From a virus (lineage: Duplodnaviria > Caudoviricetes), in the IMG/VR virus record IMGVR_UViG_3300005541_000010, positions 825 through 64,824 of that record: 64,000 bases of DNA, one strand, 5' to 3'. Below are positions 29,898 to 58,684 of the stretch, piece by piece. Each line of letters begins with the position of its first letter. Positions within the stretch are counted from its first letter, which is position 1. The notes beneath the pieces were generated by a model. It saw only the letters and a list, made by a program, of their open reading frames with translations, had not been told where the DNA came from and made no database searches. A program made the translations under genes and the position numbers.

Positions 29898-30062
29898 ATG
29901 GCATCGAAGAAAGAGCAATCGGGTCAGACCCGCCAGCACTACGACTACGCGCGCACCGGCTCCGTGCCGGGCGTCGGCAGCATCGGTGGTGCGTCGCTAC
30001 CGAAATCTCAAGAACACAGCCGCGGCGGCAAGGTGAAGAAGCCGCACGGCCGGGGACGCTGA
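29898..30062 (+). CDS. 54-aa basic protein with SRGG motif
   Basis: AGGAG SD; MASKKEQSGQTRQHYDYARTG...HSRGGKVKK; not in the ORF track. Confidence 0.65.
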   Translation: MASKKEQSGQTRQHYDYARTGSVPGVGSIGGASLPKSQEHSRGGKVKKPHGRGR

Positions 30063-30063
30063 C

Positions 30064-30282
30064 ATGGACGAGCTCCTCGCGCGCCTGCAGAAGGCGCTGG
30101 AAGTCGCCGAGCACGCCTGTTGCGTGACGCGCCCGAATGCCGGTGACGACCTCGGCTACCACCTCGGGCGTCTCCAAGGCAAGGTCGCCGGCCTCACTGA
30201 CGCGCTCGCGATGGTCACTGACTTTGCCCAGGAGGATCAGGGCGACTTCGGTGATGACAACGAGCAGCAGCGGGTAGCGTGA
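30064..30282 (+). CDS. 72-aa hypothetical protein
   Basis: MDELLARLQKAL...YHLGRLQGKVAGL. Confidence 0.65.
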   Translation: MDELLARLQKALEVAEHACCVTRPNAGDDLGYHLGRLQGKVAGLTDALAMVTDFAQEDQGDFGDDNEQQRVA

Positions 30283-30761
30283 TGCAGCAGAACTTCGCCA
30301 GCGGCGCCACGTTCGAGTTCCAGACGCTTGAGGAGGCGTTCCCTGGGCCAGCGGAGGGATGCGACCCGCTCACGGAACCGTTGCCGCACCTGGTGCTCCT
30401 GCAGATCCGGCGCGCGAAGAACGTGACGGCCGGCGGCATCGCGCTGCCCGAGGAAGTGCAGCAGGCAGAAGCCGGCAACACCCAGGTCGCGAAGGTTATC
30501 GCGATCGGGCGCAACTGCTTCAAGCATCCCGACAGCGGCAAGGACTGGCCGGAGGGCGCATGGTTCAAGGAGGGGGATTACCTGCGCATCCCGAAGTTTA
30601 ACGGCTTCCGCTTCTCGGTGAAGTGGGTGGTGCCGAAGAAGTGGGACTCGCGGCGTGACAACGGCAAGTCGATCGAGGACGTGGTGTTCGTCATGTTCGA
30701 GCCCATCCAGCTGACCGGAAAGGTGCGCGGCGATCCGCGCGCGATCACGGCTTACGTTTAA
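30279..30761 (+). CDS. GroES/Cpn10-like protein
   Basis: VLLQI...TAGGIALPE...AKVIAIG...W.KEGD...PK..G pattern. Confidence 0.8.
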   Translation: MMQQNFASGATFEFQTLEEAFPGPAEGCDPLTEPLPHLVLLQIRRAKNVTAGGIALPEEVQQAEAGNTQVAKVIAIGRNCFKHPDSGKDWPEGAWFKEGDYLRIPKFNGFRFSVKWVVPKKWDSRRDNGKSIEDVVFVMFEPIQLTGKVRGDPRAITAYV

Positions 30762-30769
30762 GGTGATTT

Positions 30770-31897
30770 ATGCCCAAGACTACATTCGCTGAAGCCCTCG
30801 ACGGGGACGACGAGAACCGCCAGACCAACGAAGGCGGCCCGGTCACCGACGACGAAACGCCCGAAACCCCGGAGACGCCGGAGGGCGAGACGCGCGAGGA
30901 GACGCAGGTCGAGGAACGCGAAGACACGCGCGTCGGCCGCAGTGAAGACGGCGAGCGCACCGAGGCGGACGACACGCCGGACGCACGCGACACACCCGAG
31001 CAGGCGCGTCACAAGCGCACTTCACGCGAGCGCCGCGACGCCCGCAAGCGCTATCAGCAATCGCTGCGCGCGGAGAACCAACAGCTGCACGGCGAGGTGC
31101 AGTCGCTCATGCAGCGACTGGCGGCGGTGGAGACCGGCCAGGGCGATTCGCGCCTCGCACTACTTGACAGCGACCTCAAACGGTGTTCCGATGAGCTGGC
31201 AACGGCTGATCGCGTCTATGAGAACGCCCTCAAAGCGGCGGGAGCAGGAGTAGAAGGGGCGGCTGGAGATGTAGTCCAGGCCACCCGACTCCGCGAAGAA
31301 GCTCGGGACCGACAGCGGCAGTTGCAGTTTGATCGCCAGCGGTTGACCGATGCGTTGACCCAGGCACGCAACCAGCCCACTCCCACGCTGCCCGCTCCGG
31401 GTAGCGCTCAAGCCGACCGACTCGAGGCCCAGTTCCGGGCCGACCGTCCGTGGCTCCAATTCGATCGCCAAGGCGCCCCGCTGAATATCGAAAGCGGTGT
31501 CGCACGCACCATCGGAGTCGCCATGCGGGCCCAGGGCCTGGATTCCTCCAAGCCCGCGTACTGGGCAGAAATGGACCGCCGCCTGCGCGGGGCCCTGCCG
31601 CAGATGTTCGATGACGATGTGACCGAGGATGAAGGCCACGACGATGAGGACGAGACGGGCGACGACGAGCAGCAAGGGGAGCGAGGCAACACGCAGCAGC
31701 AAGGTCGGCAGCAGCCGACGAACCGCGACCGGGGGCCGCCAGTAGGGCGCTCGGGGCGCAACTCCGGGGCGAACCGCAACACGGCGGTAATCCCGAAGGA
31801 AATTGTCGAAGCCTTGAAAGAGGCGGGGATGTGGGACGACCCGAAGGAACGCAAAGAGGCACTGGCCTACTACCGCGCCGCCGGGACGATCAAGTGA
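30770..31897 (+). CDS. Scaffolding protein
   Basis: Acidic N-terminus, long coiled coil, WF-type domain, C-terminal AL..AG.WDDP. Confidence 0.75.
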   Translation: MPKTTFAEALDGDDENRQTNEGGPVTDDETPETPETPEGETREETQVEEREDTRVGRSEDGERTEADDTPDARDTPEQARHKRTSRERRDARKRYQQSLRAENQQLHGEVQSLMQRLAAVETGQGDSRLALLDSDLKRCSDELATADRVYENALKAAGAGVEGAAGDVVQATRLREEARDRQRQLQFDRQRLTDALTQARNQPTPTLPAPGSAQADRLEAQFRADRPWLQFDRQGAPLNIESGVARTIGVAMRAQGLDSSKPAYWAEMDRRLRGALPQMFDDDVTEDEGHDDEDETGDDEQQGERGNTQQQGRQQPTNRDRGPPVGRSGRNSGANRNTAVIPKEIVEALKEAGMWDDPKERKEALAYYRAAGTIK

Positions 31898-31908
31898 GGA
31901 GTGATGCG

Positions 31909-32439
31909 ATGACTGCCACTGAAGACGGACGCCTGGGACACGAATCCCGCGAGACCGACCGCCCCACGCGCCTCTCGGCCACCGACACGCGCGGCCTGTC
32001 CTTCGAGGAACGCATGTCCGCCTTCCGGGGCGAGATGTACTCCAATGTGCTACCGACGCTCCCGAAGATTGACGGCCACCACGTGTGCTGGGTGTCCACC
32101 ACCAGCCAGAACGATACGGTCCAGCGGCGCGAGTCGCAGGGATACGTGCGTATCTCGCCTGCGGAAGTTCCGGGGTTTGAGCACGTCACCGTGACCTCCG
32201 GTCCTTATGCCGGGTGCATCACGTTGAACGAGATGATCGCGATGAAGATTCCGCTGCGCCTGTACTACGGCTACATGCAGATCGCACACGCGGAGCGCCC
32301 GATGGAGCACCAGAACAAGATGGGCTCCACGTTGCAGAACATGCGCCACAACGGCGACGGCGTGAAGATCGAACTCGCCGACGGCAGCCAGTCATTCATG
32401 AAGGCGTCGGCCGAGCCGCGCCCGCAGTTCACCGAGTAA
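31909..32439 (+). CDS. Conserved head-module protein
   Basis: LPKIDGHHVCWVSTT...GY..I..E....M.MK.P pattern; between scaffold and capsid genes. Confidence 0.65.
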   Translation: MTATEDGRLGHESRETDRPTRLSATDTRGLSFEERMSAFRGEMYSNVLPTLPKIDGHHVCWVSTTSQNDTVQRRESQGYVRISPAEVPGFEHVTVTSGPYAGCITLNEMIAMKIPLRLYYGYMQIAHAERPMEHQNKMGSTLQNMRHNGDGVKIELADGSQSFMKASAEPRPQFTE

Positions 32440-32458
32440 CCGGAAAAGGTAACCGCCC

Positions 32459-33130
32459 ATGCCCGCCCTCCAATCCGCGTACGGCCTGCAGCCTGTTTGG
32501 CACCCATCCGGCCAGGTCCGCCGTCTCGCCTTCGACAACGTGCTGTTGTCCACGATGAACGTGCCGATCTATCAGAACACCCCCGTCAAGTTCGTGATCG
32601 GCACGGGCGCGGCCATTGCCGGCGTCACGGTGGCAACCGGACAGATGGTCATTCAGCCGGTCGCCGCAAACACGGACGCCTTCTGCGGCATCTTTGCCGG
32701 CGTTGAGTACCAGGACGCGAACGGCCGCGGCCAGGAGTCGTCCTACTGGGGCGCCTCGACCGCGCTCTACACGAACACCGTGGCGCGCGTGTACCTGATC
32801 GGCACCGAGGACCCGCTCACGGTCTACCAGATCCAGTTTGACGGCGCGCTGAACACGGGTTCGAACCTGTATTCCTTCGCCGGCAAGCAGGCGAACTTCA
32901 ACTCCACCGACATCTCCGCCACCGCGCCCGCCGGCAGCACCGGCGCGGGTGGATTGTCGGCCTGTCGCGCCTCCGCGTCGCTCGTGGCGACCGGCTCGCA
33001 GGGGCAGCTGCGTCTGTGCAGCAACCCGCAGGGGTCACCCGTCAACGCGCCGAACGATGCCTTCCCGAACATGTACGTGCAGATCGCGAAGCACCAGTTC
33101 GGGTTCGGCAGCGTCATCACCTCGCTGTAA
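32459..33130 (+). CDS. Capsid decoration/cement protein
   Basis: YGLQPV...GIFAGVEY...DP..VY.IQ; directly before the MCP. Confidence 0.65.
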   Translation: MPALQSAYGLQPVWHPSGQVRRLAFDNVLLSTMNVPIYQNTPVKFVIGTGAAIAGVTVATGQMVIQPVAANTDAFCGIFAGVEYQDANGRGQESSYWGASTALYTNTVARVYLIGTEDPLTVYQIQFDGALNTGSNLYSFAGKQANFNSTDISATAPAGSTGAGGLSACRASASLVATGSQGQLRLCSNPQGSPVNAPNDAFPNMYVQIAKHQFGFGSVITSL

Positions 33131-33142
33131 TCAGGAGCCAAC

Positions 33143-34060
33143 ATGGCCGTCCCTCTGCAATCCAGTCTGTTCAAGAGCGTCGTTGAGCCGATCATCAACA
33201 AGGTCTTCGACGGCATCTTCAAGCAGCGCACGCCTGAGTGGAACCAGGTCTTCACTCAGATCACGGGTACGCCACGCTCCTACCACGAGGAGCCGGTGCT
33301 GTACGGCTTCGGGGCCGCTCCCGAGGTGCCGGACGGCCAGCCGGTCACCTACGGCCTGGGCGGCACGAACTTCATCAAGCGCTACCCGTATTACGTGTAC
33401 GGACTCGCGTTTGCCATCACCAAGGTGCTGGCGGAGGACGGCGACCACATCCGCATCGGCAAGACCTACGGGGAGCACCTGGGCCAGTCGATGATCGAGA
33501 CAAAGGAACTCCTGCCGGCGAACGTGCTGAACCGCTCATTCAATGGCGCGTACCCGATGGGCGATGGCGTGTCGCTGATCAACCCCGCCCACCCGATCCC
33601 TGGAGGCGGCTCGTACTCGAACCAGCTCACGACCGCGGCCGCCCTCTCGCAGACTTCGCTCGAGCAGGCGCTCATTCAGGTGCGTTCGGCGACGGACGAC
33701 ACCGGCAAGCGCATTCAGCTGGAGCCGCGCAAGATCGTCTGTGCCCCGTCGAACGTCATGCAGGCGGAAGTTCTGCTCAAGAGCGTCTTGCGCACCGGCA
33801 CCACGAATAACGACGTGAACCCGGTGAAGTCGCTGGCGCTCCTGAAAGGCGGCCAGGCGAACCTGTCACGCCTCACGTCCAACACCGCCTGGTGGATTCT
33901 CACCGACGCGCCACACGGCTTGCAGCTCGTCATGCGCCGGCCGCTGCAACGCTCGGGCGAAGGCGACTTCGAGACCGACAGCGCACGCTACAAGTGCATG
34001 GAGCGGTACGCGGTCGGGGCGACTCAGCCGCGCGCGCTGTACGGAACGCCTGGTCAGTGA
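33143..34060 (+). CDS. Major capsid protein (Mu gpT-like, HK97 fold)
   Basis: 305 aa; YHEEPVLYGFG.AP...G, YGLAFAITK, NVLNRSF, GDFETD..RYKC.ERY..G...PRALYGTPG. Confidence 0.9.
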   Translation: MAVPLQSSLFKSVVEPIINKVFDGIFKQRTPEWNQVFTQITGTPRSYHEEPVLYGFGAAPEVPDGQPVTYGLGGTNFIKRYPYYVYGLAFAITKVLAEDGDHIRIGKTYGEHLGQSMIETKELLPANVLNRSFNGAYPMGDGVSLINPAHPIPGGGSYSNQLTTAAALSQTSLEQALIQVRSATDDTGKRIQLEPRKIVCAPSNVMQAEVLLKSVLRTGTTNNDVNPVKSLALLKGGQANLSRLTSNTAWWILTDAPHGLQLVMRRPLQRSGEGDFETDSARYKCMERYAVGATQPRALYGTPGQ

Positions 34061-34073
34061 CAGGAGCATCCTG

Positions 34074-35477
34074 ATGTCTGTTTCCATCGACAGCGGACCG
34101 TGCATCATCTCCGGGTTCCAGAACCCGCAGCAGAACGACAACCCGGAAGCGGGCCCGAGCTTCAACTTTGCCGGCGAGGGCCTGCTCGACCCGCGCTTCG
34201 AGTTGTCGATCGGCCAGGCGCCGAACTACGGTAAGGTCTTCGGACTCTATTCGAACCCGCAGATCACGCTCCTGGACGCCTTCCCGCAGGCGCCGAACGC
34301 CTCCGGTATCGCCACGCTCGCCTCCGGAGCGGTGGTGCCTACGCCGGCATCCGGCGGCTTGGCTGTCACGCTGTCCACGACCAACGCGCTGGGCTTCGCG
34401 ATCGCGGTGCCCGTATGCCCGTGGACGACCACGCGCAACACCGCCAATCCCACCGGAGACGGCAAGGTGTCCGGCTACGGCCTGTCGTCCACCCCGCCGG
34501 CCTTCGTGGCGGCGAACGTCGTGACCGCGACCGCGCTGGACTTCGGCGCGGCGATCTTCACCTTGCCGGCGACCGGCACGACCACCCCGACCACGCTGTC
34601 GAACAACACCAGCTCCCCCGGAGCTGTGGCACCCGGCACGCAGTCCGCGCAAGCCTTCCCGGCCAACCAGATCCTGACCGTGCTCGCGCAGTCGGTCACG
34701 AACTGGAAGAATCCGCTGAAGTTCTACCTGCCAGGCACCTTCGTGATCGTGCCTGGGGCCGGCAATGCTGCGGGCACGTCGTGCCTCGTCGCGCAGATCG
34801 TCGCGCTCGACTACGTGAACAACTACATGGTCATCAACACCCCGGTGCTGAACACCGCCGCGAACAACACCGGCGTCGGCGTCGGCACCGCGGACCCGCT
34901 GGGTGTGGCCGCGTGGCCGTGGCAACGCCTGGGCGCCTGCGCCGCCGCGGACCCAGCGCAGATGGTCGCGCGCACGATTACGGTGACTACCTCCAACGCC
35001 GGTGACGCCAACATCGTCTGCACCATCCAGGGCTTCGACATTTGGGGCCAGCCGATGACCGAGCAGATCACGACTGCTTCGGCGGCTGCGCAGGCCGGGG
35101 TGAAGGCGTGGAAGTACATCACCGCCATCACCGTCTCCAAGGCCGGTGGCGTGACCACGACCGCGAACATCACCTTCGGCACGGGCCTGACCACCACGGG
35201 CGCTTTCGGCTTCCCGGTGCGCATCGACCAGTTCGAGTACCTGTCCTTGTTCGTGAACGCGGCCTATGTGACGGCGAACACCGGCTTTACCGCAGGACTC
35301 GCCTTTACGACCAACCCGGCCACCTACACCTCGGCGGACAACCGCGGCACGTACGCGATGCAGACGGCCCCCTCGGGTGCGGTCCACCTGGCGGTCTACG
35401 CGAATATCCCGTCCTATCAGGGCGCGGGATCGAACCTCCTGAACTACGCGCAGCTCTTTGGGCTGACGCAGACGTAG
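34074..35477 (+). CDS. Structural protein (T/A/G-rich)
   Basis: 467 aa, beta-rich, follows the MCP. Confidence 0.6.
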   Translation: MSVSIDSGPCIISGFQNPQQNDNPEAGPSFNFAGEGLLDPRFELSIGQAPNYGKVFGLYSNPQITLLDAFPQAPNASGIATLASGAVVPTPASGGLAVTLSTTNALGFAIAVPVCPWTTTRNTANPTGDGKVSGYGLSSTPPAFVAANVVTATALDFGAAIFTLPATGTTTPTTLSNNTSSPGAVAPGTQSAQAFPANQILTVLAQSVTNWKNPLKFYLPGTFVIVPGAGNAAGTSCLVAQIVALDYVNNYMVINTPVLNTAANNTGVGVGTADPLGVAAWPWQRLGACAAADPAQMVARTITVTTSNAGDANIVCTIQGFDIWGQPMTEQITTASAAAQAGVKAWKYITAITVSKAGGVTTTANITFGTGLTTTGAFGFPVRIDQFEYLSLFVNAAYVTANTGFTAGLAFTTNPATYTSADNRGTYAMQTAPSGAVHLAVYANIPSYQGAGSNLLNYAQLFGLTQT

Positions 35478-35492
35478 GAGGCGCGCCAGAGC

Positions 35493-36128
35493 ATGCGCCC
35501 AGTCATCTTCTCGCGGGCGCTCGTCGCCGGGGCGACTGGCGCCATTTGCGCGTCCCAAACCACCGCTGGGGCTGGCCCCCTGCTGATCAACGGCACGCTC
35601 GCCAGCGGGGGCGTGGCGACACTGGATGTGCAGCGCACCATCGCCATCACCTCCGGCGGCAACGACGCGGCCGTCATCTTCACGGTCAAGGGCACCGACC
35701 AGCAGGGCCGTCCGATTGGCGAAACGATCACCGGCGTGAGCACGAATACCGTTTCTTCGGTGCTGAATTACCTGACTGTCACCTCGATCACCGCCTCCGC
35801 GGCCGTCGTGAACGCAGTCACCGTCGATACAGTGGGCACTGGGGCGTCCCAGGAAGTAGTGCTCGATTTGTACCTGACGCCGCTGAACGCCGCGATCACC
35901 TGCACGCTGGTGTCGGGCGCGGCGAACGTCACGATGCAGTACACTACGGACAACATCTTCGACGGCACGAACGGCCCCTACGGCTGGACGACGGTCACGG
36001 GCCTATCCGGCATCTCCGCGACCACCTACGGGTCGATCACGACTCCGGCCACGGCGCTGCGGCTCCTGACCAACTCCGGCACGGGGACCTTCCGCGTGGC
36101 CGTCGCACAGGCCGGTATCTTCGGATAA
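35493..36128 (+). CDS. Structural protein
   Basis: 211 aa, beta-rich, AGGAGG SD. Confidence 0.6.
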   Translation: MRPVIFSRALVAGATGAICASQTTAGAGPLLINGTLASGGVATLDVQRTIAITSGGNDAAVIFTVKGTDQQGRPIGETITGVSTNTVSSVLNYLTVTSITASAAVVNAVTVDTVGTGASQEVVLDLYLTPLNAAITCTLVSGAANVTMQYTTDNIFDGTNGPYGWTTVTGLSGISATTYGSITTPATALRLLTNSGTGTFRVAVAQAGIFG

Positions 36129-36137
36129 GGAACGAAC

Positions 36138-37088
36138 ATGGGCACCAAACTCACGCACGGCAACGAGTTCCACTTCCCCAGTGAGCACGGCTTCAGCGGC
36201 TCCTGCGGGGGCTCGGCCGTCAAGGGCTACATGCGCGGCGGACATATCAAGTCTGGCACACGCACCGCTGACCCGAAGAAATTCCCGGCCGGCACGCCGC
36301 CAAAGGCGACCGTTAGCAAGAAGACCACCCCGCACGCCTACGCGAAGGGCGGTAAGACGCGCGACGAGCACAAGGACTACGACGACCGTAACGACGGACC
36401 AGACAAGGCCGACTACCCGGAGGCTGGCACCCGAACGCACCCGGAGGGATACGCGAAGGGCGGCATGCACATCAACCCCGAGCACCGCGGCAAGTTCACG
36501 CGCCGCATGGGCGAGAAGCCTGGGCACCTGACCGGCAAAGCGGTCGAGCGCGGATTGCACGCCAAGTCCGGCGAGGTGCGCAAGGAAGCCAACTTCGCGC
36601 GTATGGCGCGGCGCGGGTTCAAGCCGCTGGCCAAGGGCGGCGAGATTGAGCGCGAGGAACTGCACGAGCCAGGCGGCACCAAGAGCGAACCGTATGAGGC
36701 TGCGGCGCGCGGTGGACGCATCGGCAAAGCGCGCGGTGGACAGCCGGAGATTCGTGCCGGTCACATCAGCATGAAGTCCGAGCGACGCGAGACCGAGCAC
36801 GACCACAAGGGTGTCCGTAAGGAGCACCAGATCCACAAGGAGCACCATGGCAAGGCGGAGAAGCGCGGCGGCCACTCGACCCCGCATCCCTTCGCGTATG
36901 GCGGTCGCATGCCCGGTCCCGTAATGGGCGCCAAACACCGCAGCCGCGGCATGAATCCGATGGTCAGTGCAGCCGCGCCGGGCGTCCTGCGCGCACCGAT
37001 GGCCGTCCCACCGCCTGGTCTCGGGGCCTTGGGTGGGGGCGCACCCGGTGGTGGTATGCCTGGCATGAAGCGCGGGGGACGCCGGTAA
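36138..37088 (+). CDS. Basic low-complexity protein with nine xx(K/R/Y)GG motifs
   Basis: YMRGG, YAKGG x2, LAKGG, AARGG, KARGG, EKRGG, FAYGG, MKRGG; also an INPEHRGKF...RKEANFAR module. Confidence 0.75.
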   Translation: MGTKLTHGNEFHFPSEHGFSGSCGGSAVKGYMRGGHIKSGTRTADPKKFPAGTPPKATVSKKTTPHAYAKGGKTRDEHKDYDDRNDGPDKADYPEAGTRTHPEGYAKGGMHINPEHRGKFTRRMGEKPGHLTGKAVERGLHAKSGEVRKEANFARMARRGFKPLAKGGEIEREELHEPGGTKSEPYEAAARGGRIGKARGGQPEIRAGHISMKSERRETEHDHKGVRKEHQIHKEHHGKAEKRGGHSTPHPFAYGGRMPGPVMGAKHRSRGMNPMVSAAAPGVLRAPMAVPPPGLGALGGGAPGGGMPGMKRGGRR

Positions 37089-38354
37089 ATGGCTTCCTTC
37101 GCCAGCGGCACCCAATCGAGCATCCTGCAGCTGCTGTTCCAGGCGGTGACCTGGACCAGCATCGCGCAGAACACATCTGTGTCGCCCGCGACAAACCTGT
37201 ACATCTCACTGCACAACGCGGACCCCGGCGAGAACGGCAACCAGGGCACGAACGAGACGGTGTACTCCAGCTACGCGCGCGTGGCCGTCGTGCGCACGAA
37301 CACCGGCTTCACGGTCAGTGGCACCGCGCCCGCGATCGCGACCAACGCCGCGGCCGTGAACTTCTCGCAGTGCGGCGTCACGGGTGACACCATTACGCAC
37401 TTTGGCGTGGGACTGGCCGCCTCCGGCACCGGCACCTTGATTGGCTCCGGTCCGGTCGGCTCCGGTCCCGCGCTCGAGTTCACCGGCACCTCCGCCTCCC
37501 CTGGCGTACTCACCATCCCGAACTCCGCCTACGCGGTCAACAACCGCGTGTCGTGCTACCCGACGCAGACCGGCACCTTGCCATCCGGCATCACCGAAGG
37601 CGTCGTGTACTACGTCGGCACGGTCGCGGGCCAGGCGATCACCCTGTCCACAACGTCCGCGAACGGCAGCCCGGTCAATACGTCATCGGTCGGTGCCGGC
37701 GTCATCATCGGGCAGACCCCGCTCCTCGTCTCGCAGAACATCACGCCATCGTTCGCGATCGGCGCCTTGCAGCTGAAACTCTGGTAGGAAACAACCATGT
37801 CAAGCAACACCTGGTGGCAAACCCTCACGACCGCGCAGGTTGCCGGTAACACACTCACGGCGGCCTCCGCCGCCTCGATGCTGCCGCCGGCCGCGCGCTT
37901 CACCTTCCCCGCGGGGCTCATGAAGATCGGCGACCAGTTCCGCATCACCGCGAGCGGGATCATCTCCTGCGTCGTGACCACGCCTGGCACGGCGCGCTTC
38001 GACATCCGCGTCGGCGCCGCGGTCGTCTTCGACACGCAGGCGATGAACTTGAACACCACCGCGCAGACAACCGTGCCGTGGTGGCTCGATCTTCTCCTCA
38101 CCTGCCGCTCGATCGGCAACTCCACCAATGCCACGCTCATAGGGCAGGGCGCCTGGTCGAGCATCGCCGTCGTCGGCTCGCCCGCGGCTTCCGCAGGCGG
38201 TAACGGCCAGTTCGACGTGCCGGTCTCGGGTGGCGTCGTGGTGGGCGCGGGTTTCGATTCGACCGTCTCGAACGTCTTCGACTCGTTCTTCACGCAGACC
38301 GTGGGCACCGGTTCGATGACGCTGCAGCAGTACAACCTGGCCTACCTGACCTGA
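37089..38354 (+). CDS. Fibre/adsorption cassette A, genes 37089-37787 and 37797-38354
   Basis: LYISLHNADPG...YARVAV family; second gene paralogous to 52097-52687. Confidence 0.65.
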
Positions 38355-38422
38355 TCTAGGTCAGACTGTGTGCTCACCAGGAGCATGCTGACGGACGGCA
38401 ACTTTGCGTTGCTCAAAACCCT

Positions 38423-43811: not shown

Positions 43812-44752
43812 ATGGCCACCGCAGTCAAGCGCCAATACTCCAAGAGCATCGGCACAACGGCCGTGCAGATCGGTTCGTACGCCGCGCCTTCGGTCACCAC
43901 GGGCGTCTACGTCACCGGCCTCGTCGTGGCCAACACCACCGCCGGCACCGTCTTCGCCTCGGTCGCCATCTACGACGGCACGAACTACGCCTATCTGTGC
44001 CAGAACACGCCCGTGCCGACCGGCGCCAGCATCAACGTCGTCAACAACAACAACCGCCAGGCCCTCAATGCCGGCGACAAGGTGTTCGTGACCTCGAACG
44101 TGGCGCTGTCGCTGGATGTGAACATGAGCGTCGCGGAGATTCAATAATGCTCGGCCCTGACCCGTCTCCAGCCGGCCAAAACGTCTTTGTTGGCACGATC
44201 CTGCTGATCGGCGGCAACGGGCAGATCATCGCCTCACTCTCGTCCGCGGGCCTGCAATTTGGCAACGGCACGGACGTTGCCCCGATCGCCTGGCGCGGGG
44301 AGTGGGACTTCGGCGGCGCGGCCGGTACGCCCGGCCAGGTACTGGTGACGAACGGCCCTGGTCTGACGCCCAACTGGGGGTCCACCGCTACGCTGGCCGA
44401 CAGCGTGAACAACGCCGGCACGGTCAGCACCGGGGTGGTCGCGGCGAACGCCTTCAACAGCAACGTGACGGAAGTCACGCTCGCCGGCTTCATCACGATC
44501 AACATTACCAACATCGCGCTGACCCAAAACACCGCGCAGAACTGCATGCTGGTGCTGATCCAGGACGCCACCGGCAGCCGTCCGTTGCCGACCATCTGGC
44601 TGAACGGCTCCGTGGCCACGGTCAAGTGGGACAACGGCATCACGCCGGTGCTCACGACGACGCCCGGTAAGACTGACATCATTCAGATCACCGCCGTGAA
44701 CATCGCAGGCGTAATCACCCTCTACGGCGCCCAGGTGATTGGAGCCGCGTGA
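43812..44752 (+). CDS. Two structural genes (43812-44147, 44147-44752)
   Basis: Beta-rich; second ends in an LIQDATGSR...W...P.LTTT.GKTDII fibre-type domain. Confidence 0.65.
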
Positions 44753-45717
44753 TGATGCGTTACAAGGCGATGGCGCAGGCCGGCTCGCAGACTTTCAACG
44801 CGAGCGGCAATGCTTTGCTGCCGTGGAACGTCCACAACGTCACTTTCACGGGCGCGGGCGGCCAGGGTAATCCCGGCACTCCAGGCGGCGGTGGCAACCC
44901 TGGCACGGCCGGCCCAGGTGGTGTTGCCGGCAATTCCGGCGGCACGGGTGGTGGTGGTGGCACGGCTGGCAACGGCTCGCCACCGAGTGGTGGCGCGGCG
45001 GGCACGGGTGGCAACCCTGGCACGGCCGGCAGCGCCGGGTCCGGTTTGGCCGGTGGTAGTGGTGGACCGGGCGGCAATCCGAGCGCTGGGAGCGGCGGAG
45101 CAGGGGCGAACGGGAACAACATCGCGCCCGCGAACATCGGCAGCCCCGGCGGCGGTGGTGGCGGCGGCGCGAGTTCACCAGGCGGTAGTGGTGGCGCGGG
45201 CACACCGGGTGCCATCGGCAATTTCGGCAATCCCGGACCGAGCGGCAACCAGGGCAACGCCAGCACGTTCGGCCCGGTGGCAGCCTTCCCCGGTGGCCAC
45301 GGTGGTCCTGGCGGCGGCGCTGGATCGGGTGGCAACGCTGGAGGAGCCGGCAACGCCGGTAACCCCGGCAACCCCGCTGGCGCGGGTGGTGGTGGGGCGG
45401 GCGTGGGGCACAACAGTCCCAGCACCCCAGGCGCAGCCGGGAACCCCGGCAACGTGTCCGGTGCGGTGAACGGCAATGGCGGCACCTCGAACGGCTCGCC
45501 GACTAATCCCGGCAACGCCGGTACACCTGGCTCCGCAGGCAGTGCCGGGAATCCCGGCAACCCCGGCGGTCCCGGTGGTGCGGGCAACCCCGGCACGGCC
45601 GGCAGCCAGCCCATCACCAATGTGAATGCTGCGGTGACGCCGTATACGGTCTATACGGTCGCGATCGGCACGGGAGCGGCGCCTGGTATCGTCAACGCTT
45701 CGTGGGGGCGCCAATGA
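44749..45717 (+). CDS. Glycine-rich (GNPG / G-X-X) fibre or adhesin
   Basis: Long Gly-Asn-Pro-Gly and G-X-X repeats between short globular ends. Confidence 0.75.
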   Translation: MMMRYKAMAQAGSQTFNASGNALLPWNVHNVTFTGAGGQGNPGTPGGGGNPGTAGPGGVAGNSGGTGGGGGTAGNGSPPSGGAAGTGGNPGTAGSAGSGLAGGSGGPGGNPSAGSGGAGANGNNIAPANIGSPGGGGGGGASSPGGSGGAGTPGAIGNFGNPGPSGNQGNASTFGPVAAFPGGHGGPGGGAGSGGNAGGAGNAGNPGNPAGAGGGGAGVGHNSPSTPGAAGNPGNVSGAVNGNGGTSNGSPTNPGNAGTPGSAGSAGNPGNPGGPGGAGNPGTAGSQPITNVNAAVTPYTVYTVAIGTGAAPGIVNASWGRQ

Positions 45718-50794: not shown

Positions 50795-53700
50795 TGACCG
50801 CACTCGTCACAGCCGGCAACACCGCGGGCGCACTGCGCATGGTGTACGTCAATTCCGGGCCGTCTACCGCTGTCGTGAATACCGCGGCAGAGACCGTCTT
50901 TGACCAATATTTTACCTACCCCCTGCAATCGCAACGAGCGACGCTACCGACGACGCTTATCAGGCTGCGGACTTTCGGGATCTTTAGTACCGGACTTTTG
51001 AACCTGGGACTCACGTTGCGCCTACGGTGGGGTGGTGTCGCGGGCACGCTTCTGTGTAGCTCCGGGTCCTTATCACTCCAGGCATCAGCCTCCAATATTG
51101 GTTGGTCGGCCGAGGCACAAATCCTCATGCAGGCAGTCGGGCCGATTGGTGTCATCGAGGGGCAAGGTTACGCGGCCTTCGCGGCCGGAGCGTTGGCAAT
51201 CGCCGCACTACCGATGGCCAACGCGGGAACTTTTACTGTGGACACTACCGTCGCTTCTGATCTTGTGCTTACCGCGCAATGGGGAACAGCGGCCGCTGCA
51301 AACAGTATCCAATTACGAACCTGTGTCGTCGAAGTGGACGGCCCATAGAGGACTTCCAATGGCAATCCTTACCTACGCCGATAGCTACGCGGAATTGCAA
51401 GCCTTGTTCACGGCCACCTTCTCCGGTGCCTGGAACACCGTGGCGCAAAATGCCGCGGCCCCAGCCACGAACCTCTACGTGTCCTTGCACAATGCCGATC
51501 CTGGCCCGACCGGCTCGCAGACCACCTCAGAGACCGCGTACACGAACTACGCGCGCATCGCGGTGGCACGCACCACCGGCGGCTGGACAGTCACGCAGGG
51601 ATCGGGTACGACTTTTTCGAACGTCGTCAACGCCGCGACGATCAGTTTCGCCGCGTGCGGCGCGACTGGTGACACGCTCACCAACTGGGGCGTAGGTCTA
51701 TCATCCTCCGGGGCCGGTACTCTGCTCGCCTTCGGCCCCTTGGGTCCGGTAGCCGGTCCGGCGATCCCCTTCACCTGTACCAACGCCTCCCCTGGCGTCC
51801 TGACCGTATACGGCTACACCCCGGCGGCCAACGATCGGGTATGTGTATGGCAGTTGCCGGGCACAGAAGGATTGCCGACTGGACTCACGGAAGGCACCAC
51901 GTACTATGTCGGCACGGCCCCTGGCGGCCAGACGCTGACGCTTTCGACCACCACCGCGAACGGTAACCCGGTTAACACGACCTCCACCGGGTCGGGCATC
52001 CTCTACAAGCAATCTCCACTTATCGTGTCCAACGGCATCACGCCGAGCTTCGCGGCCGGGCAGTTCAGCATTCAGAAGGCATAGGAGCGCTTCGTCATGG
52101 CACAAGGTTTTTGGCAAACACTCGACACCCTGCAGCAGCCCGGCACGGCGATCGCGTCTACGAGCACACGTACCTCGATGACCGTGGGTTCCACACAGGG
52201 GCGTTTCACGCTGCCGGCGAACTCCATCAAGCAACTCGGGGACCAGCTCCTGCTTAAGGCGTCCGGGATAATCACTACCGTGGTCACCACCCCCGGTACG
52301 CTAACGCTTGACTTCGCGATGGCGACCGCGGCGAACGTGAGCACGGGCGCGATGACGCTTAACACGGTCGCGCAGACCAACACGCCCTGGCACTTGGAAA
52401 TCCTGATGACTGCCTTCGTGGTCGGCACGTCCGCGCAGTTCCGCTACACCGGCTACTGGCTGTCGCCGGCTTCGGTGAACGTGGCGTTGGGCGCGACCGG
52501 ACCCGGACCGGGCGGCCAGATCATCCCGTACTCCGGTACGGCGACGGGAGCATCGACCTTGGGCGTGGCGTTCGATTCGACAGTTTCGCAACTTACGGAC
52601 CTGTACTCGACATTCAGCGTGACGACCGCGAACTCAATCCAGCTCCTGGCGTACAGCCTCACGCTGATGACCGCGACCGGCTTCTAAGCCGGCCGGGCAC
52701 ACGCCCGGAGGTTTAAGTGGGCATCGCGTTCAAGTCCACGATCCCGTTCTGGGCGGCGACTTCGCCGGCCGCGAGCGCGGCGTTCACCCCTAATCCCGGC
52801 GACTTCTTCTTCGTCGTCGGCGTTACCGGCACTACCGGCACCGCCACGATCACGCAGGCGGCGAGCACCGGGCCGCCGATGCAGCAGGTATCCGGCGGTG
52901 GGCTGCCGAACTTCAACGACGGCTTCGCCGATACCTGGAGCCTGTGGTATCAGGCATCCGCGGCCGGCTCCTCGACCACCGTCACGCTCACCGCAAGCGG
53001 CGACACGATGCAGGGCATCGGCCTGGACTACGCCGGGGTCGCGGCGCTTAAAAATTCCTCGATCCTCGTCAAGGCCGCCCCCGGTACCGGAGCCGGGGCA
53101 CTCGTCGGCAGTGCGATCACCGTCAAGCCCGGCGACCTGCTCATCGTCGTCGTCGCGGACATTTCCGCGTCCGCCGGCACGATCACCGCCGCCAACGGCA
53201 GTCCGACCACACGCCTGTCCGGTACTGCCGCCGCTGGTCCGCTGACCAACTACGCGATCTTCGAATACGCCGGGACCGGGGCGGCTTTCACGCCCACCTT
53301 CACGGTCTCCGGGGGGTCCACGGATGACTATGTAGTCCTGCAATTCGCGCTGGTCGCCGCCTCAAGTTCGGCTCCTGGTCCGGCCGCGGGACGGCCGACG
53401 CTACGCCTGGGCACGCCGAACAGCCGTCTGCGCGGCAAGACCGAGACCAATAATGTCGGGCAGTTGGTCGCGCTCGCCGCGTCGATCACGGTCGCGACCG
53501 CCACGCTCATCGGCATCCCCGCGCAAGGCACCCAGTCCGTGCAACGGCCGGGGTTGCGGCTCACCACCCCGCTCAGTCTCTTGCGTGGTGTATTGGCCAC
53601 GAGCCAAGTCACCGGGAGCACCGGAACGCTTGCCGCGCTCGGCGCGAGTTCCACCGTCGGGTCCGCGGCGCTCACCGGCGCAGGTTCTTTGGACGCCTTG

Positions 53701-54414
53701 GCAGTCAGTTCAACTGCCGGTGAATCGACACTTACGGGCGTTGGTGCGCTCGCCGCGCTCGGTGCCTCGAGCACGGTCGGTGATGGAGGGGCCGCCGGCA
53801 GCGGTGCGCTCACGACCATCGTCATCACGGCGACCGCTGCCGAGGGAAGTATCACCGGCAGCGGCGCACTCGGGGCACTCGCGGTTAGCGACACGACGGG
53901 CGCTGCGGCCGCTGCCGGCGCCGGAACCTTGGCGACACTCGCGGCAACCGCGACTACGGGTGAGGGAGCACTGAGCGGTGCGGGAATGCTCAGCGCGCTG
54001 GCGACCAGCAGTACCGCAGGACCGGCCGCCGCGGCCGGTAGCGGGTCCCTGGGCACGCTGGCGATCTCGGCGATGGTCGGACACGGGCCACTGGCCACCG
54101 GCAACCCAGGGGCGATGTCGGCGCTGGGTATCTCATCGACTGCCTACGCCAAGCACAAGGCCGCCAAGCGCAAGGGGCGCTGCTGTTACCTGGTATCGCC
54201 AGCTGGGAAGACTCAGCAGGAGTGGACGGAGGCATTCGTGTACGCGAACTTGAGCGTGCTCGCACTCCCGCAACCTGGGCCTTTCGAGCAGTGGGCGGCG
54301 CAGGTGATACAGGAACCGCAACTGCAGCTGCTGCAACTGCCGACACCGGGGACGAACTGGGAGACGTGGGCCGAAGAACTCAACGCGGCGCTTGCGACCA
54401 CGGCGAGCTTCTAA
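50794..54414 (+). CDS. Fibre/adsorption cassette B: 50794-51348, 51359-52084, 52097-52687, 52717-54414
   Basis: 51359 gene has LYVSLHNADPG (paralogue of 37089); 52097 paralogue of 37797; last gene has A/G/S/T repeats and a Trp-rich C-terminal domain. Confidence 0.65.
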
Positions 54415-54483
54415 AGCCTTGACGGATGGGTCGCTAACGGTTATGAACGCGTAATCGTCGGCCCCGTGGGCGGACGTTCCTTT

Positions 54484-54525
54484 GGGCTGCGCCACCGCGC
54501 AGCGGCCCTCACTCAACTGAGGGCC
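54484..54525 (+). promoter_or_regulatory. 42-nt double-hairpin element, copy 2
   Basis: GCTGCG/CGCAGC plus GGCCCTCA-CTCAAC-TGAGGGCC, covering the SD of the TTG start at 54528. Confidence 0.7.
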
Positions 54526-54527
54526 AT

Positions 54528-57500
54528 TTGCCAGACCTGAGCCAAAGCCTCGCATACCTGCAAGCCCTCCAGAGTCTTGCGGGCAGCGTGCCGACGGCGC
54601 CGCCAGGGACTCAGAGTTCCGGTAGCTCTGCTGCCCGTCCATTCGCGCAACCGGGCGCGACGTATGGATTCAGCGGCAGTAACACCCCCGGTGGCAGTTC
54701 CTCTGGTGGTTCGGCGTACACGCCAGCCGGCACCGCCAGCAGTCCGCTTGCCCAGCTCCTGACCGGTGGCACCGCCAGCGCCGCGCTCGCACCACTCATC
54801 GCCGGTCTCGCGAGCAGTCAACCGCAAACACAACCGCAATCCTCCGCACCCAACACACAGATGTTGGGTGGTGGTTTGAACACTCTAGGCCAGTACGCGC
54901 CGACACTCTCGGGTCTCACCGGCGACGCCGGTAACGCGCTCGGCATCGTGGGCGGACTGGAGGCCGGCGGCGCGCGCGGCGATCTTGGTGCCGCGGCAAA
55001 CGCAGCCAAGCTCGCCGGCAACACCACCGGGACATCGAGCCTCACCGGCATCGGCAATGACCTCGGCTCCGCGCTCGGCCTGTACGGTGGCCTGCAAACC
55101 GGCGGCGTGGGCGGGTACGGCCAGGCGTTGGGCAGCGGCTTGAACCTGGCCGGCCAACTCGGTTCGCAGACTGGCGCGCTCTCCGGCGCCACCTCTGGCG
55201 CACTGAGTTCGGCCGGCGGTGAAATTGCTGCCCCGCTTGCCGTCTACAACGCCGTCAATAACTGGCAGTCCGGGAAGACCGGCTCGGACGCCCTGAACGG
55301 CGCTGAAGCCGGGGCTGCGGTCGGGTCGATCGTGCCGGTCATCGGCACCGGCATCGGCGCGCTCGCGGGTGGCGCGATTGGCGCGCTGTCCAGCGCACTG
55401 GGCCCTGGCGCAACCGATCCTGAGCAAGGCACGTGGGGGCAGTTCCTGAACGCCTACGACACGGGCGGTTCCAAGGCGACACAAGCCTACCTCGCAGCGC
55501 ACCCGGAACTACAGGGCGCCAACATATCGGCGTTCAAGAACGCGCACCTGGGTGGCGGCAACGGACCGAGCCCGTATGCGGCCCCTGGTGTCGCCGCCCA
55601 ACAGCAAGGCGAACAAACCGCCGCGACGCAAGGCGCACAGAACGCCGTGTCCGGTGGCAGCGGCGCCGGGGATTTCCAGGCGCTCGCGGGCCTGTTCGAC
55701 ATGCGCTCGAGCGACTTGCCCTTCTACCAGCAGTACGGCCGCATGGGTGAAGGCAAGTTCACCACCGACATGGCGAACCAGATCGACAGTGCGATCAAGG
55801 GCGGGAAGATTTCCGCCAACGCGACGCCGCAGCAAATTTATAGCCAGGTCGTCAACCCCTGGATCAGCGGCATGAACAACAGCGCTTCCAGCACCGGCAA
55901 GGGCTGGGCGGCGCAGGGCACCGGGGCCAGCGGCGGCGACATCGAAGGACAGATGCAGGCACCGGTGCAGCAACTCCTGACGAACCTCATCAGCAATTAC
56001 CAGCAGGGGCAGCCGTTCTACACGGTCGGCGGCTCGCAAGTACAGCTCCCCGCGTACGCGGCCAAAGGTGGATCAATGGACAGGAAGCGGCGCGACATGC
56101 GCGAAATCTACAAGGGCAGCTTCAAGGAGCGCCGCTTCGATAGCGGTGGCAGCGCGTACAACAACTACGCCGGCTACATCTCAAACAACGTCTCACCCGG
56201 CTCGTTGGACTACTTCTCGCCCGCGCTCGGTGGCAACACCACCGACCCTTACCAGCTCGCCAACGGCGCGAACTTGCCGACCAATCCGAATCTCGGTGTA
56301 CCCGGCACCGGACTGGGGGCCACAGGCGAAGGCACCGCGGGACTCACCCCGCAGCAACTGCAGGAGCTTGAGGGTGGGGCAACGGGGGCCGCCAATTCCG
56401 TCGGCCCTGGCGTCAATTCCGGCGCGCTGTCAGGACTACTCGGTAGCGGCGGACTAGGAAATGCCTGGAGTGGACTGAGCACCGGGCAACAGGTCGGCAC
56501 GCTGGGCGCGCTGCTGGCCGGTCTCGGCGCGATCCAGAACAACGGCCAGAACATGACGCAGCAGTACAAGCCCGCGCCGCCGCCGATGTTCGCCAACACC
56601 GGGCCGCGCGGCACCGCGCAAGGTGCTCCGGCTGGCGCGAATATGTACGGCAATTTCTCCACGCAGCCGCGCTCGCGCGTCAACCCCGGCATCACGAACT
56701 ACGCCACCTACGGCCAGGGGCCAGCGGCGATGTTTTACAGCCCGAGCCCCTCGCAGGCACCGGCCGCCGCCGGCGCGCTCAACCAGGCGTCCGCGATCCC
56801 GGCCGCCGCTCCCGCAGCACCACAAGGACAGTCGCTGCAGGCAGTCCTCGCGCAGCTCGCGCAGCAACCGGGCGTGGCGCGCGGAGTTGGGACGCAGAAC
56901 CCGAATGCCTACGCGATGGCGCGCGGCGGGGATGTTGGCCATTACTTTGTCGGCGGTTATGTAGGGCAGCCGCGCCCACCGATGATGGGTCAGCAACCGA
57001 TGGCACAACCCGGACGCATGCAGCAACCGCAAATGCCGTCGCGGCCAATACAACAGCCGTCGCCGATGGGGCCTCAGATGCCACTGCGGCAAGGGCTCCC
57101 GCCGCCGGTAGCCGCGAATCCGGGGGAGATGCCGGGAGGACAGTCAATGGCATCGCGACTCGGAGGCCCAGGTGTGCCAGGAGGAGCACCGCCGATGCCG
57201 CAACAGCCTCTGCGGCCATTTGACGGCAATCCTGTACGACCCATGTTGGCGCATGGCGGGGAGCTCGGCCGCGATCATCCAAGAGGCCACCGCGCGCAGG
57301 GACTGCTGGACGGACCAGGGGACGGCACATCGGACGACATTGTGCCGGCGGCCTTGAGTCAGGGCGAATACGTAATTCCCGCTCATGTTGTGGCTGCCCT
57401 CGGCAACGGCTCCAACAAGGCCGGCGCTGCGCGCCTCGATGAGCTGCAGAAGAACGTGCGTATGAAGACGGGTCAGGCGATGGCTCGCAACCAACATCCA

Positions 57501-57554
57501 ACGGGCAAGAACCGCGCGAAAAGCCCGGCCGCCTACATGCGGGGTGGCAAATGA
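54528..57554 (+). CDS. Ejection / internal virion protein
   Basis: 1008 aa G/A/Q-rich; several xxGG motifs; C-terminal GPGDGTSDDIVPAALSQGEYVIPA module. Confidence 0.7.
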   Translation: MPDLSQSLAYLQALQSLAGSVPTAPPGTQSSGSSAARPFAQPGATYGFSGSNTPGGSSSGGSAYTPAGTASSPLAQLLTGGTASAALAPLIAGLASSQPQTQPQSSAPNTQMLGGGLNTLGQYAPTLSGLTGDAGNALGIVGGLEAGGARGDLGAAANAAKLAGNTTGTSSLTGIGNDLGSALGLYGGLQTGGVGGYGQALGSGLNLAGQLGSQTGALSGATSGALSSAGGEIAAPLAVYNAVNNWQSGKTGSDALNGAEAGAAVGSIVPVIGTGIGALAGGAIGALSSALGPGATDPEQGTWGQFLNAYDTGGSKATQAYLAAHPELQGANISAFKNAHLGGGNGPSPYAAPGVAAQQQGEQTAATQGAQNAVSGGSGAGDFQALAGLFDMRSSDLPFYQQYGRMGEGKFTTDMANQIDSAIKGGKISANATPQQIYSQVVNPWISGMNNSASSTGKGWAAQGTGASGGDIEGQMQAPVQQLLTNLISNYQQGQPFYTVGGSQVQLPAYAAKGGSMDRKRRDMREIYKGSFKERRFDSGGSAYNNYAGYISNNVSPGSLDYFSPALGGNTTDPYQLANGANLPTNPNLGVPGTGLGATGEGTAGLTPQQLQELEGGATGAANSVGPGVNSGALSGLLGSGGLGNAWSGLSTGQQVGTLGALLAGLGAIQNNGQNMTQQYKPAPPPMFANTGPRGTAQGAPAGANMYGNFSTQPRSRVNPGITNYATYGQGPAAMFYSPSPSQAPAAAGALNQASAIPAAAPAAPQGQSLQAVLAQLAQQPGVARGVGTQNPNAYAMARGGDVGHYFVGGYVGQPRPPMMGQQPMAQPGRMQQPQMPSRPIQQPSPMGPQMPLRQGLPPPVAANPGEMPGGQSMASRLGGPGVPGGAPPMPQQPLRPFDGNPVRPMLAHGGELGRDHPRGHRAQGLLDGPGDGTSDDIVPAALSQGEYVIPAHVVAALGNGSNKAGAARLDELQKNVRMKTGQAMARNQHPTGKNRAKSPAAYMRGGK

Positions 57555-58684
57555 GCCTCACATCCTTCCTCAGCTCGGACCCGATGCAGTACACGTCGGC
57601 CACGTCGCAGTCGAGCACGCAACTGCCGGCGTGGTACGGGGACTATACGCAAGGCATCCTGCAAAACGCCGCGCAGTGGGCGAACCAGGGCTATCAGCAG
57701 TACGGCGGCCCGCGCGTAGCGCCACTGTCGGCGGACCAGCAGTCGTCCTACGGCACTGTCGCTGGTGCGCAAGGGTTGGGCCAAGGCATCGCACAGCAAG
57801 GCGTCGGCGCGATCAACAACGCGCTGCAGCAACCGAATGCCTCGCAGGCCGCGCAGCCGTACCTCAATTCCGCGTCCGCGCCCATCTCCTCGCAGATGGG
57901 CCAGTTCATGAATCCCTATAGCCAGCAGGTGGCGCAGACGGGCATGAACCTGATGAACACGCAGTTCAATCAGCAGGTGCTCCCAGGACTACAGAACCAG
58001 TTCACGCAGGCCGGTCAAGTCTATGGTGGCACGAATCAGGGCGTCGCGGCCGCGCAGCTCGGCGCGCAGTTGGGCGGTCAGGAAGCCGCGGCGACCGCGA
58101 ACACGCTCTCGAGCGGCTTCAACACCGCGCTCGGCGGTGCCGAGCAGCAGCAGGGACTCATGGCCGGACTCGGCAGTACGGCTGGGGGACTCGCGAACGC
58201 GGCGCAGAATACCGGTATCGGCGCGGGCTACGGACTCGGGTCGGTGGGCACGATGGCGCAGAACAACGCGCTCAATCAGGCGTCGATGCAAAACCAGATG
58301 GGCCAGCAGCAGCAGGCGCAGACCCAGCAGAACTACAACACCGCCTACCAGGACTTTCTGAACCAGACCAATTACCCGCTCACCGCCTCGCAGGGGATGC
58401 AGGGCGCGCTACAGGGCATCCAGGTCCCGCAGGGGCAGTCGAACTATCAATACTCGCCCTACGGCTTTGGCATGAGTCCGCTGGCGCAGGCCGGGTCCAC
58501 GTACGGTGCGCTGAATTCGATGTTCGGCAACGGCGGCTCGCTCTCCGGTCAGCCGAGCGGCGGTACGGTGAATAACTACTACACCGCCGCGCCGGCTGCG
58601 AAGGGCGGCCAAGTGCGCGCGCAACTGCACCTGCGGCGCAACTTCCCGTCCGCGTACCAGCAGTACAAGGCAGGTCACGCATGA
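57551..58684 (+). CDS. DNA pilot / ejection protein
   Basis: LPAWY..Y.Q, YQQYGGPRVAPLS.DQ, FMNPY, Q-rich, AYQDFLNQ.NYP. Confidence 0.75.
   Translation: MSLTSFLSSDPMQYTSATSQSSTQLPAWYGDYTQGILQNAAQWANQGYQQYGGPRVAPLSADQQSSYGTVAGAQGLGQGIAQQGVGAINNALQQPNASQAAQPYLNSASAPISSQMGQFMNPYSQQVAQTGMNLMNTQFNQQVLPGLQNQFTQAGQVYGGTNQGVAAAQLGAQLGGQEAAATANTLSSGFNTALGGAEQQQGLMAGLGSTAGGLANAAQNTGIGAGYGLGSVGTMAQNNALNQASMQNQMGQQQQAQTQQNYNTAYQDFLNQTNYPLTASQGMQGALQGIQVPQGQSNYQYSPYGFGMSPLAQAGSTYGALNSMFGNGGSLSGQPSGGTVNNYYTAAPAAKGGQVRAQLHLRRNFPSAYQQYKAGHA

Follow-up and report, generated by a model that had tools for sequence, protein, structure and literature searches.

A short glycine-glycine (Gly-Gly) motif recurs in several proteins of the short-tailed phage (Duplodnaviria; Caudoviricetes) represented by IMG/VR virus record IMGVR_UViG_3300005541_000010, of which 64,000 of the 64,824 bases (positions 825 to 64,824; G+C content 59-68%) were analyzed and are referred to here as the window. 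From a survey of related sequences, the consensus of the motif, hereafter called the tag, may be written as [Y/F/H/M]-A-x-G-G-x-[V/L/I], which appears in this phage mostly as Y/M-A-K/R-G-G. The enrichment of the tag in a few proteins, its conservation at the peptide level, its position on both sides of different modules, and the finding that it singles out the cargo protein gp45 of phage crAss001 together suggest that it is a conserved short linear motif located at the joints and ends of modular, largely disordered podophage proteins that are packaged and ejected, a description to which we assign a probability of about 0.8. With regard to function, a tentative interpretation, whose chances we put slightly below even, is that the tag acts as an exposed hinge-plus-docking peptide of packaged ejection proteins and stays uncut in the virion. 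A literature search combining the string AKGG with phage returned nothing relevant, and the tag is apparently undescribed.

Injected phage proteins are hard to tell from sequence and include the first weapons against host defences. A tag that is common to gut crassviruses and proteobacterial podophages, and that picks out the proven, small cargo of crAss001, may therefore be useful as a predictor of packaged cargo and possibly as a handle to load foreign proteins into phage heads. In addition, its analysis defines an unannotated module of about 50 amino acids (aa) in about a thousand protein clusters.

Enrichment and conservation of the tag

The initial annotation had described an xx(K/R)GG motif in several virion-associated proteins, and all of the copies that it named were found in the respective genes, including nine in a basic (pI 10.2), mostly disordered protein of 316 aa encoded downstream of the major capsid gene (Table 1). 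The tags of this protein span aa 31-37, 68-74, 105-111, 164-170, 189-195, 197-203, 241-247, 252-258, and 310-316, with [KR]GG at residues 33, 70, 107, 166, 191, 199, 243, and 312 and FAYGG (252-256) as the ninth copy. The eight [KR]GG strings compare with a mean of 1.85 in 5000 composition-preserving shuffles (P=4e-4), and six matches to the fuller pattern [FYLMAH][AMKS][KR]GG with 0.13. Six or seven copies, together with a C-terminal K-R-G-G-R, are retained in nine homologues from metagenomes. The codons vary among the copies in this genome, suggesting that selection acts on the peptide rather than on a DNA repeat, and a DNA-level repeat or recombination site was rejected for this genome on the same ground.

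The other carriers are proteins of 1008, 377, 54, and 100 aa. The 1008-aa protein contains AIKGG, AAKGG, FDSGG, MARGG, YFVGG, LAHGG, and a terminal YMRGGK, with tags at aa 422-428, 511-517, 797-803, 907-913, and the C-terminal 1003-1008, and has a conserved C-terminal domain starting at aa 929. Its [KR]GG count is not significant alone (4 versus 1.56 expected, P=0.07); that of the fuller pattern is 3 versus 0.13 expected, the pattern having been defined after the data were seen. The 377-aa protein has only two Lys residues, one of which lies inside AAKGGQV. Across the window, 14 matches to [AMKS][KR]GG were found in the 1855 aa of the five named proteins and 2 in 14817 aa elsewhere (Fisher P=4e-12, a post hoc value based on a crude gene set). 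An open reading frame (ORF) scan of the window showed that only the 316- and 1008-aa proteins reach two or more tags. The giant polyvalent protein (60331-63999) has just one [KR]GG, implying that the tag is not used at its domain joints.

The recurrence of the tag outside the 316-aa protein might be ascribed to chance in Gly-rich, GC-rich coding sequence, since none of the single copies in the 377-, 54-, and 100-aa proteins is significant individually and the [KR]GG excess of the 1008-aa protein is marginal. This explanation appears very improbable. Plain GG is nowhere above the composition expectation, and Gly-rich proteins without tags serve as internal controls: a Gly-rich, fibre-like protein (44749-45717) contains 36 GG and no tag. 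The near absence of matches from the remaining proteome also speaks against chance, which is largely refuted by the retention of the tag at orthologous positions in other phages. In the 54-aa protein it is kept at the same place in two syntenic phages (FKKGG and FAKGG). The family of the 1008-aa protein comprised 237 matches, and in 40 of the 41 members examined a tag of the form M/L-x-A-x-G-G-x-L/I/V, here LAHGGEL, lies about 15-35 residues before the C-terminal domain; about one third of the homologues end, like the 1008-aa protein itself, in Y-M-K/R-G-G followed by one to three basic residues. One relative shares the AAKGG of the 377-aa protein; its absence from Caulobacter phage KcrB counts in favor of chance for this copy.

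Modules bracketed by the tag

A profile of the 316-aa family matched 943 clusters in a library of 1.8 billion proteins, most of them over the central ~50 residues only. Among the best 150 clusters, hydrophobic-x-x-G-G was present just upstream of this central module in 109 of 139 and just downstream in 97 of 127, compared with 9.8% of random windows of the same proteins, with an upward bias in the flank statistics because the search profile included the tags. A logo of 1041 sites centered on GG showed Y/F/H/M at -3, Ala at -2, K/E/D at -1, and V/L/I at +2. In the wider family, E, D, or N precedes GG as often as K or R, so that the recurrent motif of the initial annotation stands while its K/R core does not; K/R at this position appears to be a local habit of these basic proteins. 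DNA binding as a shared function was disfavored for the same reason. When IMG/VR viral contigs were scanned with the family pattern, only two related loci were obtained. Atlas look-alikes of the family were all viral, and some of them were fused to NlpC/P60.

Structure prediction with AlphaFold2 (AF2) gave the 316-aa protein a mean predicted local distance difference test (pLDDT) score of 49, with folding only at residues 109-158. A model of this domain alone, based on 52 sequences, consists of three helices with pLDDT 82-92, and both neighboring tags fall in the low-confidence flanks. No convincing fold relative of the domain was found (Foldseek best E=4; VIA-align best Z=4.1). Free-standing versions of the module begin with M-(A)-I-H-I, exactly at the end of the tag, and C-terminal versions stop just before the next tag. 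Two of the nine homologues of the 316-aa protein (P0006 and P0012) lack about 55 central residues, the deletion running exactly from tag to tag, starting from YAKGG.

Besides this three-helix module, the tag brackets DUF6496 and the conserved C-terminal domain of the 1008-aa ejection-type protein, confirming the earlier impression that the motif separates unrelated segments and indicating that these are swappable modules. DUF6496 (PF20106; Pfam E=1.8e-10, 41.5 bits versus a cut-off of 24) occupies aa 30-74 of the 100-aa protein and is flanked by YAGGGKV (aa 27-33) and KAKGGSW (aa 74-80). Phage-type DUF6496 homologues keep both flanking tags, and stand-alone ones of 55-70 aa start right after the tag position; no mention of DUF6496 was found in the literature searched. 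Many members of the 316-aa family have an N-terminal leader of 10-15 aa that ends in a tag, directly before the first module. C-terminal copies include YMRGGK*, YMDGGRV*, and KRGGRR* (the asterisk marking the end of the protein), and 30 of 148 family members have a copy at this end, a position that fits a docking tail better than a cut site in front of a module.

It is possible to regard the tag as a passive Gly-Gly turn or flexible linker without a specific partner, which has been kept through the swapping of modules together with their linkers. The tag-to-tag deletions in P0006 and P0012 and the location of tags in unstructured stretches of the predicted models agree with this idea, which we nevertheless consider rather unlikely. 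If the tag were a passive linker, Crassvirales and proteobacterial podophages would not be expected to share an aromatic residue at -3, Ala at -2, and V/L/I at +2, the conserved C-terminal copies have nothing to link, and the differing codons indicate that the tag is not a recombination hotspot in the DNA of this phage.

Two cysteine features were also observed in the 316-aa family. G-F-S-G-S-C-G-G near the N-terminus is invariant, and many members (P0027, P0028, P0032, P0044, P0054, P0057, P0058, and P0157) end in Cys right after the basic Gly-Gly tail (...GGGRC or ...GGKAC). Both features hint at disulfide or metal anchoring.

Relationship to cargo protein gp45 of crAss001

The central module of the 316-aa protein is homologous to residues 377-421 of gp45 (hidden Markov model (HMM) E=2.5e-4 against PDB 7qog_M; domain HMM i-Evalue 3.8e-10), and tblastn and HMM matches reach cargo protein 1 of crAss001, cr111_1, and DAC15 (tblastn 1e-6 to cr111_1). 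In the study of crAss001 by Bayfield et al. 2023 (PMC10172136; PDB 7QOG, 7QOI, 7QOJ, 7QOL, and 8CKB), gp45 (cargo protein 1) was detected in virions by mass spectrometry (MS), with residues 214-245 resolved at the wall of the tail barrel and residues 425-552 at the wing of the portal. We found seven tags in gp45, with GG at 209-210, 263-264, 332-333, 373-374, 427-428, 562-563, and 828-829. The segment 214-245 starts four residues past a tag, and the segment 425-552 opens with A425-F426-G427-G428 and ends seven residues before the next one, suggesting that the tags delimit pieces that dock to different parts of the virion. The latter segment runs on through A-F-G-G, which implies that the copy at 425-428 is uncut in the virion. 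Within 100 kb of crAss001 (ORFs of at least 80 aa), gp45 is the only ORF with at least two tags (4 versus 0.52 expected). A pattern that demands an aromatic residue at -3 misses the crAss001 copies, whose aromatic residue is at -1 (A-F/Y-G-G); Ala at -2 is steadier.

The two proteins share the ~50-aa module and the tag, one copy of which also lies near the C-terminus of gp45; neither the tag nor the module is mentioned in the gp45 paper (PMC10172136). The 316-aa protein differs from gp45 in its much smaller size, higher basicity, and nearly complete disorder, and it has neither the portal-binding CARG1 domain (PF25725) nor the predicted transmembrane helix; its gene is also not located after a muzzle gene. 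A Pfam search of the 316-aa protein returned no match at all, including CARG1, which is present in cr111_1, P0023, and P0050. A family member of 1867 aa is encoded directly 3' of a crAss muzzle gene.

Homology and gene position thus suggest that the tag proteins of this phage are packaged, in line with the proposal that the carriers are internal or ejection proteins. The 1008- and 377-aa proteins are probably ejection proteins, given a position and make-up usual for podoviruses. They correspond to gp066c and gp065c of KcrB (tblastn 2e-8 over the last 80 residues; N-terminal region; gene order), a phage in which the next gene product has a transglycosylase-like C-terminus, and they share with podovirus ejection sets the C-terminal domain, the N-terminal region, and a syntenic location between the tail genes and the gene of a large lytic or polyvalent protein. 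A different arrangement was observed in a relative (L012; G002:C1:28332-31679), where an ORF of no more than 204 aa holds the counterpart of the C-terminal domain seen in the 1008-aa protein and the next gene fuses a 377-aa-type protein to a longer C-terminal part, implying that the ejection-protein set has been reshuffled between relatives.

Docking or proteolytic processing

The choice between a packaging tag and a maturation cleavage site, as framed initially, is retained as the right pair of hypotheses. If the tag serves docking, the aromatic anchor, the Gly-Gly turn, and the hydrophobic residue would fasten each module or C-terminal tail inside the particle at repeated sites, which might be provided by the portal, the tail lumen, the core, or the DNA end. 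Flexible chain segments between the modules would allow the protein to be threaded out at ejection, and the tag would be left uncut in the virion.

Alternatively, the tag may be a cut site, where a phage or host protease cuts after or just before Gly-Gly, in the prohead or after ejection, and thereby releases the modules, or basic peptides resembling mu and pVII of adenovirus. The proteases of adenovirus, African swine fever virus (ASFV), and coronaviruses cut after GG. Their recognition sequences, (M/I/L)XGG-X for the adenovirus protease, GG-X for ASFV pS273R, and LXGG for coronavirus PLpro, resemble the tag in having a hydrophobic residue two or three positions before GG, and the substrates of the adenain/pS273R type are basic core-type proteins of DNA viruses, as are the tag carriers. 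Several observations weigh against uncut docking or speak for processing. A cleavage code would also produce inter-tag modules that exist as free-standing genes beginning exactly after the GG position; the N-terminal leaders ending in a tag look like removable propeptides; and only 1-3 residues follow the C-terminal copies. A cut between its two parts would make it easier to understand why gp45 is found on either side of the crAss001 portal, and the published MS analysis used one excised whole-lane band, which gives no size for gp45 in virions (PMC10172136). The evidence for an uncut copy concerns one site in one phage and comes from a published residue range. In addition, the tag consensus was fixed after the data had been seen, and the flank statistics carry the bias described above.

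Proteolytic processing is the main rival to docking, with a somewhat lower probability. Pfam and PHROGs recognized no protease among the head-module proteins, in line with the initial annotation, in which no prohead protease had been recognized; a scaffold-type protein is present, as in the protease-free assembly of the P22/T7 type. More broadly, Pfam and PHROGs searches detected no protease among the 29 late proteins scanned, many of which are without any annotation. A 375-aa protein considered as a candidate prohead protease was rejected, as its acidic, coiled-coil composition is of the scaffold type; encoded beside a GroES-like gene, it reads as a scaffold. Unlike in the GG-directed systems, no clan CE or papain-like protease was found here, one crAss001 copy (gp45 425-428) lies uncut within a continuously modelled segment, and a hydrophobic residue is kept at +2, which is unusual for GG-directed viral proteases. 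Furthermore, cutting the 316-aa protein at every copy would yield peptides of 8-59 aa.

Two other phages offer partial parallels. According to the record annotation, the host protease OpdA removes a 20-residue leader from gp7, an ejection protein of P22; in its gene (L016 9369-10058), this leader ends in ...S-Y-P-E and K-G-G-K-G-G comes immediately next. The P22 cut falls before KGG and not after GG. The gp7 leader and the capsid-targeting sequences of T4 are both short address peptides for the head interior, similar to the role proposed for the tag; the T4 sequences are only N-terminal and are cut at L/I-x-E by the prohead protease, whereas the tags described here are internal, multiple, and C-terminal.

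Phage T7 provides a parallel for docking. In keeping with what is proposed for the tag carriers, its gp6.7 and gp7.3 are small, basic, and largely disordered, are packed at the portal, core, or nozzle, and are ejected. gp6.7 contains E-F-G-G-S at 33-37 and ends in S-A-F-G-G-K-K, and gp7.3 has A-R-A-G-G-K-K. Zheng et al. 2024 (PMC11784390) resolved residues 34-50 of gp6.7 on the gp15 wall and residues 84-98 of gp7.3 on the nozzle, with K84 and K85, right after GG, on the DNA end; F34-G35-G36 of gp6.7 is intact in both virion states (PMC11784390). The FGG and AGGKK elements therefore lie at the edges of ordered, partner-bound segments and at the C-terminus, and are uncut there. T7 assembles with a scaffold and no protease, apparently as in the phage studied here. 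However, no sequence homology to the tag carriers was detected, the gene positions differ, and the likeness consists of a motif of three to five residues, which may be due to chance.

The tag carriers also resemble the polyvalent proteins described by Iyer et al. 2017 (PMC5512222), in which unrelated modules are strung together in packaged and ejected proteins and swapped between relatives. In this phage, by contrast, five separate proteins, most of them small, carry the tag in place of one giant array, and the giant polyvalent protein itself does not use it; Iyer et al. (PMC5512222) describe no such tag.

Possible partners of the tag

A more far-reaching possibility is that the tag constitutes a universal code, readable from sequence, for the address or junctions of the internal proteins of tailed phages, and that one conserved partner reads it. 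Such a code appears unlikely on present data, although it deserves consideration; the partner might be a site on the portal or tail lumen, a host chaperonin, or a Gly-Gly-specific protease. If true, cutting at some copies would explain the occurrence of gp45 on both portal sides, and packaged and injected proteins could be predicted from sequence across very distant phages. For gp45, the question arises whether it is a single chain threaded through the portal or several pieces.

With regard to a chaperonin, the tag could mimic the mobile loop of GroES and recruit host GroEL, which would hold the modules before packaging or refold them after ejection. GroES-type loops have the form x-x-(A/K)-G-G-I-x-L, the GroES-like protein of this phage has VTAGGIALP, and relatives have KTKGGII. 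A partner found in every host would account for the conservation of the tag in phages of different phyla, and Cpn10-like genes are present in this phage, KcrB (gp090c), G002, and L007, and weakly in crAss001 (gp15). This mimicry is quite unlikely, however. The logo has a single V/L/I at +2 with K/E/T neighbors, so that most tags show one hydrophobic residue after GG amid charged residues instead of the I-V-L triplet, and only the module start GG-I-H-I comes close; the aromatic residue and Ala before GG are not GroES features. The co-occurrence of the GroES gene with the tag is suggestive and not strict, as cr111_1 bears tags and has no detectable Cpn10, and the relatives of this phage do not provide independent instances of co-occurrence.

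The initial annotation had further compared the motif to the LRGG end of ubiquitin and proposed that GG-ended peptides, released by the JAB domain encoded at the left edge of the window, act as decoys for E1/E2 enzymes of bacterial ubiquitin-like (Bil or CBASS) defences. Apart from the superficial likeness to LRGG and the presence of the JAB domain in this genome, little agrees with this scenario, to which we attach almost no credence. AF2 predicted disorder and a three-helix domain in place of a beta-grasp fold. GG is always internal or followed by basic residues and is never the true C-terminus, and K/R before it is not conserved in the family. The C-termini end in GG-K or GG-R-R and not in GGQ/GGE, so that a Pup-type ending is also lacking, and the gp45 tag at 425-428 counts against the ubiquitin framing as well. 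Pfam scans, which covered the proteins tested and not the whole window, turned up no E1 or E2. As for the JAB domain as cognate peptidase, Iyer et al. 2017 argued that the RadC-type JAB is without the groove for the ubiquitin tail (PMC5512222), and no RadC JAB was found in the complete, tag-bearing genomes of KcrB, crAss001, and cr111_1, nor in two partial relatives. The RadC JAB was rejected as the cognate peptidase on the basis of this lack of co-occurrence and of the structural argument.

Gene order and neighboring genes

The late region lies on the plus strand, and its gene order (Table 1) was read from Pfam and PHROGs scans. The 316-, 1008-, 377-, and 54-aa proteins were assigned to no family by Pfam or PHROGs, the sole match being a weak one to an unknown PHROG.

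Table 1. Position of the tag-bearing genes and other features in the window (nt, nucleotides)
Feature	Position (nt)	Strand	Remarks
RadC-type JAB domain	3..755	+	left window edge; protease candidate of the initial annotation
100-aa DUF6496 protein	752..1054	+	3' of the RadC JAB frame
Large terminase	24811-26361	+	first in the late-region order
Portal protein	27278..29881	+	49% identity to the portal of Caulobacter phages RW and KcrB
54-aa basic protein	29898..30062	+	directly 3' of the portal gene; tag HSRGGKV at aa 40-46, nt 30015-30035
72-aa protein	between the 54-aa gene and the GroES-like gene	+	placed by late-region order
GroES-like (Cpn10) protein	30279..30761	+	head module, soon after the portal; intact mobile-loop-like VTAGGIALP
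375-aa acidic, coiled-coil-rich protein	30770..31897	+	scaffold position; no protease signature
Major capsid protein	33143..34060	+	PF25209
316-aa tag-rich protein	36138..37088	+	3' of the major capsid gene in the late-region order
Central ~50-aa three-helix module (predicted) of the 316-aa protein	36465..36629	+	between YAKGG and LAKGG
GP4 Gp80-like fibre protein, then adaptor-like and tail genes	3' of the 316-aa gene	+	placed by late-region order
Four large proteins (1008, 377, 549 aa, and a giant of >1223 aa)	end of the late region	+	
1008-aa ejection-type protein (putative)	54528..57554	+	Gly/Ala/Gln/Pro-rich; TTG start; 897 aa in the collection's own gene call
377-aa ejection-type protein (putative)	57551..58684	+	Gln-rich; AAKGGQV at aa 349-355
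Giant polyvalent ejection protein	60331..63999	+	Zeta_toxin and ddrB-ParB domains

Several minor features of these genes were also observed. The ORF of the 1008-aa protein is read from the TTG at 54528, and the start in the collection's gene call is near 54861. The Gly-rich protein at 44749-45717 (322 aa, 35% Gly) consists of degenerate repeats of the G-N-P-G-x-x-G type and is probably a fibre or collagen-like tail part. The domain of Ralstonia phage GP4 fibre I (Gp80, PF23140) occurs in two paralogues (37089-37787 and 51032-52084). The giant ORF (60331-63999) leaves the window at the right edge and the RadC JAB frame (3-755) is open at the left edge; as the record exceeds the window by only 824 bases, the two may represent one wrapped gene.

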